A stretch of DNA of 64,000 nt from Alphaproteobacteria bacterium. Its GTDB lineage: Bacteria; Pseudomonadota; Alphaproteobacteria; Rs-D84. Where the stretch lies: contig JAKSTC010000003.1 of NCBI GenBank assembly GCA_024402765.1, positions 16,112 to 80,111 of the forward strand. The letters run 5' to 3'. The position numbers and the translations under genes were made by a program. Shown here piece by piece: positions 5,998-23,578 of this stretch (positions are counted from its first letter, which is position 1; every line of letters starts with the position of its first letter). A model generated the notes under the pieces. That model made no database searches and was not told the origin of the DNA. It was given only the letters and a program-made list of their open reading frames with translations.

Positions 5998-7143
5998 ATG
6001 TTGACCACCCATAGAACAGATGATAGTAAATTAACAGATTGGTATTATGGGGTTGATAGACCTTTGCTGTTTTGTGTTTTGTTGTTGATATTGATTGGTG
6101 GGGTTGCTGCTATATCTACTGGGTCGGCAATGATGGTGTTCAAAAAGTGGCACTGGTATCATTTTATTTTAAATATGTTGCCATTTTACATTGTTGGTTT
6201 TGCTGGTATGGTTGCCGTCAGTATGACGAATAAAAAGTGGGTTTTATGGATTGCGTGGGCAAATGTGATAATTTGTACTCTTTTATTGGCATTAACAAAA
6301 ATAATGCCGTGTGGAACATACGGTTCTGAACGTTGGGTGTGCTTTTCTGGAATTAAACTAATGCCGTCTGATATATTAAAACCTGGGTTCGTGATGTTGT
6401 CTGCTTGGTTTATTACAAAAATGAAAGAGTGTTATGGTCCCGATGTTTTTATCAAAGATGCGTTTCAAATTAAGAATCACTATAATTGGTGGTATTATTT
6501 GGTAGTTGTATTTTTTGTATTGTTGATATTGGTATTGCAACCTGATTATGGAACTGCGATATTATATTGCGGTGTTGTTGGTGGATTGTTGATTTTTGCA
6601 GGATTACCAAAATTGTGGATAGGTGTTGGTGTCGCATTTATGGTGGTCGGTGGCACTTTTGCATCTTTGTTTGAGCCACATGTCCACAGGCGTGTTATGG
6701 CATTTATTGCACCCCTGGACCCCACCAGCCAGGTTGGGCGATCTATAAACGCAATTCGTCAGGGTGGACTATTTGGTATGGGGGACGAGGCAAGTGTTAC
6801 AGAAAAACTGCCGATGGCAGAAAACGATTTTGTGTATGCGGCATTGGTTGAAAATTATGGCGCGATTGGTGGGTGTTTATTACTGGTATGCTGTGTGTAT
6901 ATGATTCAGCGTTTAATCACAGATGCACGTGGTGCACGCGATCCATTTGTGTATTATGCCACATTGGGGGTTATGCTGATGTTTGCTATTCAGATTTCTA
7001 TTAATCTAGCAACAACATTACATATTATGCCACCTACGGGAATAACATTTCCTTTTGTGTCATTCGGGGGCAGTGCGTTTTTAAGTTCTTGCTTGATGTT
7101 CGGTATGGTTTTGGCAATAATTCGTGAAGATAAGTGGAAATAA
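5998..7143 (+). CDS. ftsW: SEDS-family peptidoglycan glycosyltransferase (FtsW/RodA)
   Basis: About 10 TM segments, conserved PLPFVSYGGS-like motif (TFPFVSFGGSAF), and position between mraY and murG. Confidence 0.85.
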   Translation: MLTTHRTDDSKLTDWYYGVDRPLLFCVLLLILIGGVAAISTGSAMMVFKKWHWYHFILNMLPFYIVGFAGMVAVSMTNKKWVLWIAWANVIICTLLLALTKIMPCGTYGSERWVCFSGIKLMPSDILKPGFVMLSAWFITKMKECYGPDVFIKDAFQIKNHYNWWYYLVVVFFVLLILVLQPDYGTAILYCGVVGGLLIFAGLPKLWIGVGVAFMVVGGTFASLFEPHVHRRVMAFIAPLDPTSQVGRSINAIRQGGLFGMGDEASVTEKLPMAENDFVYAALVENYGAIGGCLLLVCCVYMIQRLITDARGARDPFVYYATLGVMLMFAIQISINLATTLHIMPPTGITFPFVSFGGSAFLSSCLMFGMVLAIIREDKWK

Positions 7144-19811: not shown

Positions 19812-20225
19812 TTATTTTATTTTTTCTCTCAAAATAGCGGAGTGGATATTGGGTGTATGCTGAAAATATACTGGTTTAATACCGATACTTTTGAGAAAAT
19901 CATTTTCAATTTTTTGTTCAGGTAAATGTCTATTGTCATCACCACGATAATATTCAGACACATTGATTCCAGATTCTAAAAGTTTTTGTACTAAGCTTAT
20001 TCCGTTTTCTATTATATATGCATCATAGACAATTTTAAATTCTTTGATAATACTTAATCTATCTTTCTCGTTTTGTATCGGGTCATGACCTTTTGCTGCT
20101 TTTATTCTGTTGTCACTATTTACACCGACAATTAATTTATCGCAGTGTTTATAGGCCTTTTTTAATAAATTTATATGACCTATATGTATTAAATCAAATG
20201 ATCCACAAACAACGCCGATTTTCAT
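19812..20225 (-). CDS. tagD: Small cytidylyltransferase, glycerol-3-phosphate cytidylyltransferase (TagD)-like
   Basis: GSFDLIHIGHINLLKKA (HxGH), 137 aa, C-terminal HTPNIHSAILREKI corresponding to the TagD RTEGISTTKIKE region. Confidence 0.65.
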   Translation of the reverse strand: MKIGVVCGSFDLIHIGHINLLKKAYKHCDKLIVGVNSDNRIKAAKGHDPIQNEKDRLSIIKEFKIVYDAYIIENGISLVQKLLESGINVSEYYRGDDNRHLPEQKIENDFLKSIGIKPVYFQHTPNIHSAILREKIK

Positions 20226-20226
20226 T

Positions 20227-21216
20227 TTATTTGTCCTTTGAGCAAAATTGATTAAAAACGTCTTGGTCGGATAAATTTAAAAATTCTCGTAAAGCGATAA
20301 GTTTTTTTGGTGATATATCTTGACTAAACATATGGTGTCGAAACATGTCATTAGGAAAAGAATAAATGTTACCCCAACATTTTGTTGCATATAATTCTAA
20401 ATCTTTTGGAAACCAAAAATAATATTTGTTAAATTTTAAACGTTTAGTAGGAAATATTGTGCTGTAGTCATAAAATTCTCCTGGTTTGCAATCGGCATGC
20501 ATAGGGAATATCGTTTTAGATTGGTCTGTGTTGTTGCAAAAAATAGATTGGTGTATTTTTTTTGTTAACTCAAAATCTGCTTCTATTATATTGTATTTTT
20601 TTTCTATGTCTTTGTGCGTTAGAGAATTTGTTAATTCGAAATGCATAAAAGGTACATCTGAGCGTTTGGTGCGAAATTTTTCTAATTGTTCTCTTAATTT
20701 TTGTTCGTTTTGTTCTTTATAACAATTTGGTGAATGATGCACATCATATCTTAGAATGTCTAAAAAAGCTTTGGTTTCTGTATGTATAATTCGGCAGACA
20801 TTACTAGTAAATAACGCATAAAAATATTTGTTGGGAATACAATGTTTAATTATTTTAATAAATTTACAATAATCGTCAGATAACATGCCTACATCAATAT
20901 CATCATCCCATGGAATGCAGTTGTTGTATCTTAATTTCCCAGCAATAGCACCCCCTATCATAAAATATTTTATGTTGTGTATCTGAGTGAATTTATCGAA
21001 AGTGTTTAGTAATTTTAGATTAGAATCTTGGATATATTTCATAATTCCACGGGCTTGTGGTATATGATTAATGTCAATAGAAGCAGATAAAATATTTAAT
21101 ATTTGTCCTATATAATCAGGTTTGGTAATTTTTGGACCACCCCAACGTCTAACTATGTTGCGCAATTTTCTTGTTGGTAAAGGAAAAGCTAGTATTCTAA
21201 ATAAAGTTCGTTTCAT
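20227..21216 (-). CDS. licD: LicD-family phosphotransferase (transfers a phospho-alcohol from a CDP-activated donor to a glycan)
   Basis: FMIGGAIAGKLRYNNCIPWDDDIDVGM, the LicD DxD-type signature. Confidence 0.7.
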   Translation of the reverse strand: MKRTLFRILAFPLPTRKLRNIVRRWGGPKITKPDYIGQILNILSASIDINHIPQARGIMKYIQDSNLKLLNTFDKFTQIHNIKYFMIGGAIAGKLRYNNCIPWDDDIDVGMLSDDYCKFIKIIKHCIPNKYFYALFTSNVCRIIHTETKAFLDILRYDVHHSPNCYKEQNEQKLREQLEKFRTKRSDVPFMHFELTNSLTHKDIEKKYNIIEADFELTKKIHQSIFCNNTDQSKTIFPMHADCKPGEFYDYSTIFPTKRLKFNKYYFWFPKDLELYATKCWGNIYSFPNDMFRHHMFSQDISPKKLIALREFLNLSDQDVFNQFCSKDK

Positions 21217-21232
21217 TTTATAACCCTTTTTG

Positions 21233-22099
21233 TTATTTTTTATTGTATTTTTTCATTACAGGAATTCCAAAAATAAGATAGTTTGTTGCTTTTGTAGATC
21301 TAGAAAAAATCTCTTTAATAAGATGCAAGCCAAATATTTTATAAATGGTTAAAGTTTGGTTAGGTGTGTTAATGCGTTCTTCTAATTCATATTTGTTTAT
21401 AAATGTACGCAGGTGTTTTGCTGCATATTTATATTGTTCTTGGTGTTTTGGACTATAGGCTTTATTTAATAGAGAATTAGCATTAAAAACATAGTGGTAA
21501 TAAGTATCAGGAACGGTTAAAACATAATTTGCTAATCGCATAGCATCGGGTGTAAAAAGTATATCTTCAAAAATACGCCCGTTTGCAAAAATTAGTTTGT
21601 TTTTATTTAAGAAATTGCGTTTGAACACATATCGCCATACTGTACAATTTGATAGTGCATTAGTTTCTATGAATTTTTCGGTAAGTGTTGTTAATATAGT
21701 TTTGTGTTTGTATTCTATATTATAAAAACTTCCGTTTTGTGATACAACGCCGGCGGCGATAATATCTGCGTCTATACCTTTATTCGCAGATATTATTTTT
21801 TCATAATAATCTAAATCTATGTAATCATCGCTATCTATGAAATGGATATAATCACCAGTTGCGTTTTTTAATCCTGTGTTTCGTGCCGCAGATAATCCTG
21901 AATTTGTTTGATATATAATTTTTATTCGCTTGTCAATTTTGGCGAATTGCTGACATATTTTATCGCTGTTGTCTTTACTCCCGTCATTGACAATAATGAT
22001 TTCTAAATTTTTGTGGGTTTGATGAATAATACTGTTCAAACATTGTGGCAAAAATTGTTCTGTATTATATACAGGTATTATAACAGAAACTTTACTCAT
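21233..22099 (-). CDS. Family 2 glycosyltransferase
   Basis: VSVIIPVYNTEQFLPQCLNSIIHQTHKNLEIIIVNDGSKDNS and a DSDD motif. GGGGGA RBS 7 nt before the ATG. Confidence 0.88.
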   Translation of the reverse strand: MSKVSVIIPVYNTEQFLPQCLNSIIHQTHKNLEIIIVNDGSKDNSDKICQQFAKIDKRIKIIYQTNSGLSAARNTGLKNATGDYIHFIDSDDYIDLDYYEKIISANKGIDADIIAAGVVSQNGSFYNIEYKHKTILTTLTEKFIETNALSNCTVWRYVFKRNFLNKNKLIFANGRIFEDILFTPDAMRLANYVLTVPDTYYHYVFNANSLLNKAYSPKHQEQYKYAAKHLRTFINKYELEERINTPNQTLTIYKIFGLHLIKEIFSRSTKATNYLIFGIPVMKKYNKK

Positions 22100-22124
22100 A
22101 CGATTCCCCCTTTTTTTGAATTGA

Positions 22125-22153
22125 TAAAAACCGCCTCTGAATCAAATGGCGGT
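22125..22153 (-). terminator. Intrinsic terminator inside the 5' leader of the GT2-licD-tagD operon
   Basis: Minus strand reads ACCGCC, a 12-nt loop, GGCGGU, then UUUUUAU. It ends 26 nt upstream of the GT2 start codon. Confidence 0.7.
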
Positions 22154-22361
22154 CGGGGAGTTCAAAAATCATACAGTAAGTGACTCCATCGGTCTTTGGT
22201 TGAACCTGTTTTATAACCGACGGCTCCCCGACCGATGTGTCGGGGTATAAACAATAAATGGTGCACATTGCACCACACATTGCCTATGTGGATAACAACA
22301 CTATATGTGCTGCTTACTGTACGGGCCTTTGAAAACCCTGAACCTTATTCCCACAAGATTC
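22154..22361 (-). promoter_or_regulatory. Structured leader RNA with mutually exclusive helices (riboswitch- or attenuator-like, class unknown)
   Basis: See the corresponding finding: a 9-bp long-range helix, a 7-bp hairpin and a competing 10-bp helix that overlaps the terminator. Confidence 0.45.
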
Positions 22362-22367
22362 ATAGTT

Positions 22368-22396
22368 ATTATACACAATATTTTTCAATCTGCAAA
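22368..22396 (-). promoter_or_regulatory. Promoter candidate for the leader and GT2 operon
   Basis: Minus strand reads TTTGCA, 17-nt spacer, TATAAT. Confidence 0.4.
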
Positions 22397-22444
22397 TCAT
22401 AAATTTATTGACCTGGGCTAATATTTTTTACTAACCTTTGCGGT

Positions 22445-23578
22445 ATGAGGAAGGTTTTAGTATTTTTTATATCTGTATTGTTTTGCATAACGGCGTATGC
22501 GGGCGGGTATCGTGCGGCGTTGGTTGCTGATATGGATTCAGGTCGCGTATTGTATTCTGAAAATGCAAACAATGCGAACTATCCTGCGAGTCTAACCAAA
22601 ATAATGACATTGTATTTGACATTTGATGCGTTGGAGCATGGACGCCTGCATCTGGACGATTACTTAATTGTATCAAATAGTGCGGCAAATGCAGAGCCGG
22701 TAAAACTGGGGTTAAGTGCGGGCAGTAAAATCAGTGTCGAAGATGCAATAAAAGCGGTCGCGGTGGTCAGTGCGAACGATGTCGCGCGCGTTCTGGCGGA
22801 AAATCTGCAGGGTGGCAAGGAAGGAAATTTCGCAGAATTAATGACGCGTGTTGCGCGCCAGATTGGTTTAAGTGATGTTACTAATTTTGAAAATTCATCA
22901 GGTCTACCCAATGATGATCATATGTCAACGGCGCGTGATATTGCATTGTTGTCTATGGCGGTGTATAAACATTACCCTCAGTATTGGAAATATTTTGGAA
23001 TCAAGACTTGGACATTTGGTGGTAAAACATATACAAACGGTAATCGTTTGCTGGGGGGGTACCCTGGTTGTGATGGTATGAAGACAGGATACACAAAAAA
23101 ATCAAAATATTCTTTGGTTGCAACGGCTATTCGTGATAATCATCACTTGGTTGCGGTGGTATTGGGCGCAGATGACAAAGATGTGCGTGCGGTGGCCGCA
23201 ACAAAAATGTTAAATCGCGGTTTTCAAGAGGTGGGGGTTGATACGACATCAAGTTATACATATCAACCTGTGGCGCAACAACAATACCCAATCACGCAAA
23301 GCAATCCAATGGCAAAATATGCGTCTGATGCACCAAAGGCAAAGACTGTTGCGGTGTCGTCTGGGAATGCGGGTGTTCAATTCGGTGCGTTTTCTACGCG
23401 TGATGCGGCGGTGCGCCAGGTGCAAAATGTTTCTGCAAAATTGGGTGTAACACCAAAAATAGAACAAAGTTCAAATGGCCTGTATCGTGTGCGACTGTAT
23501 GGGTTATCTGAATCATCTGCACAAACGATAAAAAATAATGCTTCTGCTAACGGTATTGATTGTTATATTTTTCATTGA
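22445..23578 (+). CDS. D-alanyl-D-alanine carboxypeptidase (S11, PBP5/6 type) with a C-terminal SPOR domain
   Basis: Signal peptide. SLTKIMT (SxxK), SAND (SxN), KTGYT (KTG). The C-terminal 75 aa (GVQFGAFSTRDAA...GLYRVRLYGLSESSAQ...GIDCYIF) are SPOR-like. Confidence 0.88.
   Translation: MRKVLVFFISVLFCITAYAGGYRAALVADMDSGRVLYSENANNANYPASLTKIMTLYLTFDALEHGRLHLDDYLIVSNSAANAEPVKLGLSAGSKISVEDAIKAVAVVSANDVARVLAENLQGGKEGNFAELMTRVARQIGLSDVTNFENSSGLPNDDHMSTARDIALLSMAVYKHYPQYWKYFGIKTWTFGGKTYTNGNRLLGGYPGCDGMKTGYTKKSKYSLVATAIRDNHHLVAVVLGADDKDVRAVAATKMLNRGFQEVGVDTTSSYTYQPVAQQQYPITQSNPMAKYASDAPKAKTVAVSSGNAGVQFGAFSTRDAAVRQVQNVSAKLGVTPKIEQSSNGLYRVRLYGLSESSAQTIKNNASANGIDCYIFH

Follow-up and report, generated by a model that had tools for sequence, protein, structure and literature searches.

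The locus described here raises a simple question: what fills the 345-nt gap between a glycosyltransferase gene of family GT2, starting at 22099 on the minus strand, and a divergent D-Ala-D-Ala carboxypeptidase gene, starting at 22445 on the plus strand? Both genes lie in a 64,000-nt stretch of an Alphaproteobacteria bacterium genome (assembly GCA_024402765.1, contig JAKSTC010000003.1, positions 16,112 to 80,111 of the forward strand), which was analysed whole and is called the window below. The interval 22361-22100 on the minus strand is probably the 5′ leader of the GT2-licD-cytidylyltransferase mRNA, and this leader probably works as a cis-acting attenuator of the riboswitch type. We put the probability of this reading at about 0.65.

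Folding of the 263-nt leader yields a minimum free energy of −101.4 kcal/mol, compared with −66.1 ± 4.9 kcal/mol for shuffled sequences (z = −7.2), and none of 200 shuffles folded as well. At the center of the fold is a strand, segment b, that has two partners. The GUCGGGG part of b can pair with an upstream segment a in a 7-bp hairpin with a 6-nt loop (−14.0 kcal/mol), and the whole of b can pair with a downstream segment c over 10 perfect base pairs. An initial annotation of the region had proposed exactly this choice, and both helices are present and have been kept in evolution. It had also taken the 10-bp helix for an antiterminator; the helix is perfect and does overlap the terminator, and it is further identified here as P1, the helix that closes a three-way junction.

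The intrinsic terminator named in the same annotation, ACCGCC/GGCGGU followed by UUUUUAU, lies where it was placed. RNAfold extends its stem to GACCGCC/GGCGGUU (−12.4 kcal/mol), it has ACC in common with P1, and its U-run ends 25-26 nt 5′ of the GT2 ATG at 22099. A simple terminator scan missed this hairpin because the scan's loop limit is 8 nt. A further 9-bp long-range pairing (duplex energy −12.1 kcal/mol) had been described as a helix enclosing the a:b hairpin; the pairing is real, but rather than merely enclosing other elements it forms a pseudoknot with the loop of hairpin P3. Finally, the CUCCCC of segment c is complementary to the GT2 Shine-Dalgarno sequence, with a duplex energy of −10.3 kcal/mol.

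Relatives of the leader were collected in two ways. A first scan, with one genome per species and the P1 pair as its pattern, was swamped by tRNA-Pro genes and redone with a longer gap; its 79-nt matches are tRNA-Pro genes and its 80-110-nt matches are true homologues. A second scan was anchored on the 5′ hairpins H1 and H2 only and was hence blind to the switch helices. It returned at least 119 loci, all of them metagenome-assembled genomes (MAGs) of gut Alphaproteobacteria among the matches listed, and in 99 of the first 100 of these the junction follows 110-130 nt downstream. R1, a covariance model of the junction built from homologues, gives 66 true copies scores of 47.7 bits or more, with noise no higher than 34 bits, and finds a single copy in the window. 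Altogether, at least 178 distinct homologous leaders conserve the helices and elements of this one, including both partners of b.

The flanks of 19 aligned homologues indicate that the whole leader is conserved, not the junction alone. Its members are about 190-270 nt long and promoter-proximal, and the order from 5′ to 3′ is promoter, H1, H2, a segment complementary to the P3 loop, H3/H4, segment a and the junction. Beyond the junction, a short hairpin begins within the 3′ strand of P1; a U-run comes next in most cases, and then a G-rich Shine-Dalgarno sequence.

Covariation supports P1, P2, P3, H2 and the pseudoknot in these alignments, and the competing a:b hairpin more weakly. In the H1/H2-anchored sample, whose selection did not involve P1, pairing holds in 94.9% of cells; shuffling gives 86.6% (0/500 shuffles as high), and control pairings with partners slid by 1-3 columns reach 28-53%. 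Double changes occur at 19 of the 23 pairs in this sample, including six of the ten in P1. All eight modelled pairs of P2 show double changes, as do all four consensus pairs of H2 (30 diverse leaders), and P2 and P3 covary in the alignment of 19 homologues. The arms of H1, read directly, compensate as well (CUGAC/GUCGG, CGAAC/GUCCG, GAGCCGG/CCGGCUC) around a loop that stays GGGA, GAGA or GAAA. Unpaired positions are also conserved: the internal loop of P2 is A-rich (UAUAAAACA...AAAG), and the AA before the 3′ strand of P1 is nearly invariant (in the homologue alignment, A72 is invariant and A73 nearly so).

The arms of the pseudoknot are hypervariable and differ in almost every leader, yet they are always complementary, over 8-11 bp in the family. 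Across 107 leaders, the 5′ arm pairs with its own P3 loop over a mean of 8.68 bp, compared with 5.38 bp for the P3 loops of other leaders (p = 3e-19). In the P1-anchored set, automatic placement put this arm in the wrong position in roughly half of the leaders. The RNAalifold consensus of a full-length MAFFT alignment was unclear, and RNAalifold did not recover H1 across subfamilies.

The two pairings of b are maintained together. Nearly all homologues have a competitor segment complementary to b, and a, b and c change in concert in eight leaders (L289, L313, L274, L237, L217, L245, L129 and L190). Examples of such three-way changes are b GGUCGGGUGU with a AUGCCUGGCC and c ACGCCCGACC; b ACGCGGGG with a CCCUGCGU and c CCCCGCG; and b GAUCGGGG with a CCCCGAUU and c CCCCGGUC. 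Duplex energies are better within a leader than between leaders for both a:b (p = 4e-13) and b:c (p = 3e-24). The formal covariation score of a:b is 0.207 against 0.180 and is reached by 2/500 shuffles; it is only modestly above controls because the a and b strands are highly conserved. A conserved, structured, sensor-like domain with covariation support, as sought in a riboswitch, is thus present in the leader. Frequent G-U pairs and the fixed orientation to the downstream gene assign the structure to the RNA of the minus strand.

An inverton or miniature inverted-repeat element was considered and rejected: orientation is always that of the downstream gene, and in the complementary strand the many G-U pairs would turn into A-C mismatches. 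A leader peptide was rejected too. The initial annotation had offered the small open reading frame (ORF) at 22092-22280 as an alternative explanation, and no ORF is conserved among 169 leaders; an ATG-initiated ORF runs through the junction in only 44 of them, of which three have a Shine-Dalgarno sequence, whilst in 67 leaders every one of the three frames is closed by stops.

The sequence that follows the junction looks like an expression platform. A hairpin with a U-run stands directly after the junction in 158 of the 169 leaders, and in 131 of these 158 it uses 3-4 nt of segment c. This overlap, together with the three-way compensatory changes, bears out the succession of anti-antiterminator, antiterminator and terminator that the initial annotation had perceived. 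Mutually exclusive terminator and antiterminator pairings, a further riboswitch feature, are therefore found on sequence and comparative evidence only. The G+C-rich hairpin and U-tract of an intrinsic terminator are present in the window and absent in GC-rich members of the family (Microvirga, Acidobacteriota). The start codon follows the junction by a median of 46 nt, which leaves insufficient room for another promoter, and the interval between terminator and Shine-Dalgarno sequence at GT2 is likewise too short for one. GGGG occurs in the Shine-Dalgarno window of 77/163 leader-associated genes, compared with 9/37 other genes of the window (Fisher p = 0.016).

Transcription is predicted to start at about 22361 on the minus strand. 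The TTTGCA-N17-TATAAT element singled out in the initial annotation is the top promoter-like site of the region, with 10/12 matches, and a TANNNT hexamer ends 4-7 nt 5′ of H1 in 102 of 110 homologous leaders, so the RNA begins with H1.

From the structure, the conservation, both covarying pairings and the terminator overlap, all of them observed, we infer the direction of the switch and its trigger. The 5′ domain (H1-H4) and the three-way junction (P1, P2 and P3) would be tied together by the pseudoknot between the P3 loop and the segment after H2, and control would consist in competition for strand b (GGUCGGGGAG). In the proposed OFF state, b would pair with a (CCCCGAC) and leave c (CUCCCCGACC) free; the GACC end of c would then complete the terminator, and its CUCCCC could mask the GGGGG Shine-Dalgarno sequence. 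In the proposed ON state, b:c would close the junction as P1, the terminator would lose 3-4 base pairs, the Shine-Dalgarno sequence would be exposed, and RNA polymerase would read into GT2. GC-rich members without a U-tract would act on translation only. The OFF fold of the window copy (a:b, terminator and c:SD, the pairing of c with the Shine-Dalgarno sequence) has an energy of −100.7 kcal/mol, and the P1-closed fold has −91.2 kcal/mol, to which the pseudoknot, invisible to nested folding, would add about −12 kcal/mol. Neither state is therefore strongly favoured over the other. The elements involved are collected in Table 1.

Table 1. Coordinates of the leader elements, their pairings and the adjoining expression signals in the window.
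Feature	Coordinates	Strand	Sequence or content	Remarks
Promoter, sigma-70-type	22368..22396	-	-35 TTTGCA 22396-22391; -10 TATAAT 22373-22368	17-nt spacer
H1, 5′-terminal hairpin	22340..22361	-	GAAUCUUGU-GGGA-AUAAGGUUC	9 bp, GNRA-type tetraloop; from fold
H2 hairpin	22323..22338	-	GGGUU-UUCAAA-GGCCC	from fold
PK-5′, pseudoknot 5′ arm	22313..22321	-	UACAGUAAG	pairs with P3 loop
Pseudoknot	22321-22313 / 22180-22172	-	UACAGUAAG / CUUACUGUA	9 bp
H3 variable hairpin	22296..22312	-	CAGCAC-AUAUA-GUGUUG	present in homologues, variable
H4 long variable hairpin	22247..22287	-		missing in some homologues, including orthologue L212
Segment a, competitor strand (anti-antiterminator)	22239..22245	-	CCCCGAC	pairs with 5′ strand of P1
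a:b hairpin	22245-22239 / 22232-22226	-	CCCCGAC / GUCGGGG	7 bp, 6-nt loop
Segment b, 5′ strand of P1, switching strand	22224..22233	-	GGUCGGGGAG	resembles a Shine-Dalgarno sequence
P1 (b:c)	22233-22224 / 22160-22151	-	GGUCGGGGAG / CUCCCCGACC	10 bp
P2	22186..22223	-	CCGUCGGUU / GACCGAUGG	9 bp; small distal hairpin 22206-22198
P3 hairpin	22167..22185	-	AGUCA / UGAUU	9-nt loop CUUACUGUA (22180-22172) pairs with PK-5′
J3/1 joiner of the three-way junction	22161..22166	-	UUUGAA	single-stranded
Segment c, 3′ strand of P1 (antiterminator)	22151..22160	-	CUCCCCGACC	last 3-4 nt start the terminator stem
Intrinsic terminator	22121..22154	-	GACCGCC...GGCGGUU then UUUUAU	−12.4 kcal/mol
Terminator core	22153-22148 / 22135-22130	-	ACCGCC / GGCGGU	followed by UUUUUAU
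Shine-Dalgarno and GT2 start	22097..22110	-	GGGGG 22110-22106; ATG 22099-22097	read from the sequence
Operon	19812..22099	-	GT2 21233-22099; LicD-family protein 20227-21216; cytidylyltransferase (TagD) 19812-20225	Pfam matches

The carriers of the family, among the matches listed, are mostly Ca. Enterousia and other gut Alphaproteobacteria of the order Rs-D84, and several MAGs hold at least 3-5 copies each. Members also occur in Microvirga (M. vignae, M. calopogonii, M. rosea and M. brassicacearum; loci L016, L087, L148 and L168), Acidobacteriaceae (Acidobacteriota), Chthoniobacteraceae (Verrucomicrobiota), Aquimonas and Rickettsia tamurae, and on five IMG/VR viral contigs. A BLAST search of the leader against plasmids gave no match. 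A rumen MAG (L212) has a GT2 orthologue with 65% amino-acid identity to that of the window. Its neighbours match those of the window, and the leader is there too, with P1 (AG/CU to UG/CA) and the pseudoknot altered in a compensatory way. This locus lacks LicD and TagD (compared at L212 3862-3951); its GT2 gene is directly followed by a convergent 456-aa ORF, which occupies the place held by pyruvate kinase in the window. The LicD and cytidylyltransferase genes (19812-21216, minus strand) would thus appear either to have been added to a slot already under leader control or to have been lost from it.

More than 100 unrelated genes are preceded by the leader. Of their products, 62 match 32 Pfam families; most match nothing. 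The matches include GT2 (twice), GT8, RgpF, LicD, outer-membrane beta-barrel proteins, Opacity porins, Chlamydia PMP repeats, a YadA anchor, two DNA methylases, a PAS-GGDEF protein and helix-turn-helix (HTH) proteins. About half of the downstream proteins have a signal-peptide-like N-terminus by a crude rule, and many are small secreted proteins. The set is diverse but leans towards the cell surface. This diversity, together with the absence of LicD and TagD at the rumen locus, undoes the link that the initial annotation drew between the leader and a glycan-decoration cassette dependent on CDP-alcohols. A ligand tied to CDP-alcohol metabolism is unlikely because the downstream genes are diverse, and CDP-glycerol, CDP-choline and similar compounds are poor candidates.

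Whether the RNA belongs to a known class was addressed with Rfam. At gathering score, a scan of the window found two tRNAs elsewhere and no family at the leader, and the window together with 17 related loci gave tRNAs and an ALIL element only. A permissive scan of 22050-22500 matched sRNA-Xcc1 (RF02221) at 38.2 bits, below its threshold of 53, with E = 2.8e-5 for that small search. The match is full length (model positions 1-87), and the 10-bp helix is P1 in the alignment. Two homologues (L016 and L189) score 36.3 and 34.4 bits against RF02221, also under threshold. In the other direction, R1 scores the sRNA-Xcc1 copy of phage Aaphi23 at 34.9 bits, so the leader junction and the sRNA-Xcc1 junctions are related. 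The initial annotation had found no known family; this holds at threshold, but the leader is not wholly unrelated to known families, since its junction resembles RF02221. An open-access text search, which cannot prove that none exists, returned no published description of the larger leader, literature on c4 motifs and riboswitch candidates contained no description of it, and text matches to P1 sequence strings were irrelevant primers only. The leader therefore apparently belongs to a large family of switch-like leaders that the literature does not describe.

Several points weigh against the attenuator as drawn above. The ON/OFF assignment rests on sequence, P1 and the terminator have only 3-4 nt in common, and the formal covariation support for a:b is modest, since segments a, b and c are highly conserved. 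The GC-rich Microvirga and Acidobacteriota members have no U-tract, and the downstream genes are too diverse to indicate one metabolite. In addition, sRNA-Xcc1 has been reported as a free 88-nt RNA (PMC2996969), which makes some function of the junction in trans possible.

Ligand sensing by the leader is plausible: the trigger is most likely a small molecule, ion or second messenger that would stabilise the pseudoknotted junction fold, with a trans-acting factor as the main alternative. On that alternative, which we consider unlikely, a protein, the transcription machinery or another RNA would bind the junction or pseudoknot and choose between P1 and the terminator, and no small molecule would be involved. 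The put RNAs of phage HK022 act through the transcription machinery itself, and the true sRNA-Xcc1 junctions in phages adjoin antiterminator (Q) and antirepressor (ant) genes. A factor would also suit the diversity of the downstream genes and the conservation of the P1 sequence, which goes far beyond pairing needs. It suits other features of the family less well: no conserved neighbouring protein gene was seen, the occurrence in several phyla and on phage contigs speaks against a lineage-specific protein, and the combination of GNRA loop, pseudoknot and conserved internal loops is what self-contained aptamers typically show.

The P3 loop pairs upstream in the same transcript, as a loop of the c4 RNA does in phage P1, and this likeness suggests another possibility, a rather improbable one: that the junction is a stable small RNA, released by termination and/or processing, which acts in trans or as a c4-like antisense, with downstream control secondary. 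It is in keeping with the tandem junction copies found in one locus (L130) and in Xylella (PMC12189769), and with sRNA-Xcc1 itself, an RNA of about 88-100 nt with ends mapped at P1, in Xanthomonas only (PMC2996969). A c4-like antisense action on the downstream ribosome-binding region was nevertheless tried and rejected, since the P3 loop has no specific complementarity to that region (own-versus-other p = 0.37). The loop is hypervariable and has no common target, and a purely trans role would give no reason for the conserved competitor of b, for a terminator that overlaps P1 or for a downstream gene that lacks its own promoter. That the leader is just a constitutive structured 5′ untranslated region, stabilising the mRNA and fixing expression behind a leaky terminator without any regulated switch, is scarcely credible: 5′-terminal hairpins like H1 are well known to stabilise mRNAs, as in ompA, and many downstream genes encode outer-membrane or secreted proteins, but neither the two exclusive pairings of b, kept with compensatory changes, nor a terminator built over P1 would be accounted for.

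The attenuator reading invites a wider one, which we offer tentatively and hold to be doubtful when its parts are taken jointly. The family would be a new widespread riboswitch class, occurring sporadically in other phyla and phages as well, and its ligand would report on the general state of the cell or its surroundings, as second messengers, ions or cues from the host could do. It would serve as a master switch of the surface and secreted proteome in reduced-genome gut Alphaproteobacteria (Rs-D84 / Ca. Enterousia), and the 'small RNAs' known as sRNA-Xcc1 in integrons and prophages would be pared-down relatives of the junction that likewise act in cis.

The window copy of the leader is flanked by housekeeping genes, namely the carboxypeptidase (Peptidase_S11 with a SPOR domain, DacC-like), RecR, KsgA and pyruvate kinase. 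The RecR ORF, listed with TTG as its start codon, shares 19 nt (23560-23578, plus strand) with the end of the carboxypeptidase/SPOR gene, and 4 nt are common to RecR and KsgA; such close spacing is in keeping with a reduced genome. Within the leader, the inner stem of H4 (22258-22276, minus strand; GUGGUGCA-AUG-UGCACCAU followed by UUUAUUGUUUA) is listed as terminator-like and could serve as an earlier pause or termination point.

The core of P1 and the three bases that follow it (CGGGGAG...CUCCCCG-A-CC, 22151-22233, minus strand) equal the acceptor stem of tRNA-Pro with its discriminator A73 and CC. The P1 pattern scan returned dozens of Sphingomonadales tRNA-Pro genes because of this identity, those at L001, L002, L013, L027 and L077 among them. 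The likeness may reflect chance or acceptor-stem mimicry. A tRNA or tRNA-like 3′ end was rejected as an identity for the leader: there is no tRNA match at the site, and NCCA follows P1 in only 67/169 leaders.

Some members of the family are arranged in unusual ways. L130 carries two junction copies in tandem, 122 nt apart (6205-6292 and 6327-6413, plus strand) and without the usual 5′ domain, which recall the five tandem sRNA-Xcc1 copies of a Xylella genomic island (PMC12189769). Leaders stand back to back at divergent secreted-protein genes in L189 (1718-1809, minus, and 2713-2803, plus), L190 (6179-6258, minus, and 6545-6631, plus) and L239 (two copies), so some loci are small clusters of leader-controlled genes. 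The members on viral contigs are L329 (4484-4570, plus strand), L323, L324, L330 and L325, their phage status being the IMG/VR label. In L329, the leader precedes a lipoprotein-like ORF near a 409-aa ORF, an arrangement reminiscent of a phage 'moron' that brings along a regulated leader. The two copies in Rickettsia tamurae AT-1 (L123 4668-4773 and L150 2356-2451) are full-length leaders with promoter-like sites and no clear downstream ORF, and they may be decaying.

Structured leaders with such comparative support are rare: at least 178 examples share a pseudoknot, a GNRA-capped helix and two maintained competing pairings. Genomes of Ca. Enterousia and Rs-D84 are smaller than 1 Mb (PMC12306168) and nevertheless keep at least 4-5 copies each, placed before genes of the kinds that determine the cell's appearance to host or partner: those for glycosyltransferases and LicD, for porins and adhesins, for DNA methylases, and for small secreted proteins. 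A ligand, should there be one, would tell us which signal these uncultured carriers perceive. The finding may also bear on sRNA-Xcc1, widely annotated as a 'virulence sRNA' about 40 nt 5′ of symE, ant and Q-like genes, which may itself be a leader element.

Among known systems, sRNA-Xcc1 is the closest. It and the leader have in common a three-way junction, a G/C-rich closing helix with a GUCGGG...CCCGAC core, a P2 with an A-rich internal loop (AUACAAUA / GAA), a P3 hairpin and a 'GAAC' joiner, as well as a position about 40 nt 5′ of an ORF on the same strand (symE, ant, an ORF6N protein or a Q-like gene). In Xanthomonas integrons, sRNA-Xcc1 lies about 40 nt upstream of symE; in APSE it is 5′ of an ORF6N gene, in phage Aaphi23 between Q and ant, and in Stx phages before a Q-like gene. 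It has been described as a trans-acting small RNA of uncharacterised mechanism. The two differ in architecture and distribution. The junction of the leader sits within about 240 nt of leader sequence, with a conserved promoter about 128 nt upstream of P1, hairpins H1-H4, a pseudoknot, a competitor strand and a separate terminator, whereas the Aaphi23 copy has no such promoter, 5′ domain, pseudoknot, competitor strand or overlapping terminator. The leader is chromosomal, syntenic (also in the rumen MAG) and found in other taxa, with a few family members on viral contigs, whereas sRNA-Xcc1 belongs to integrons and prophages and is carried by Xanthomonas, Xylella, Stx phages, phage Aaphi23 and APSE.

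Two further comparisons concern function more than sequence. The c4 RNA is a small multi-hairpin antisense RNA whose loop pairs with an upstream site of the same transcript. The c4 RNA of phages P1 and P7, isrK and the leader are all multi-hairpin RNAs in operon leaders with a loop complementary to an upstream site of the same transcript, and c4 and isrK occupy phage neighbourhoods common to sRNA-Xcc1; the leader site has no Rfam match to C4 or isrK. Against the riboswitch models of Rfam 15, the leader shows no sequence or structure match at E ≤ 10. In organisation, it resembles the cyclic di-GMP riboswitches (c-di-GMP-I and c-di-GMP-II), with which it has in common a GNRA loop, a junction, a long-range contact and a terminator/antiterminator platform. 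Both also occur in several copies per genome, before adhesins, glycosyltransferases, GGDEF proteins and uncharacterised proteins.

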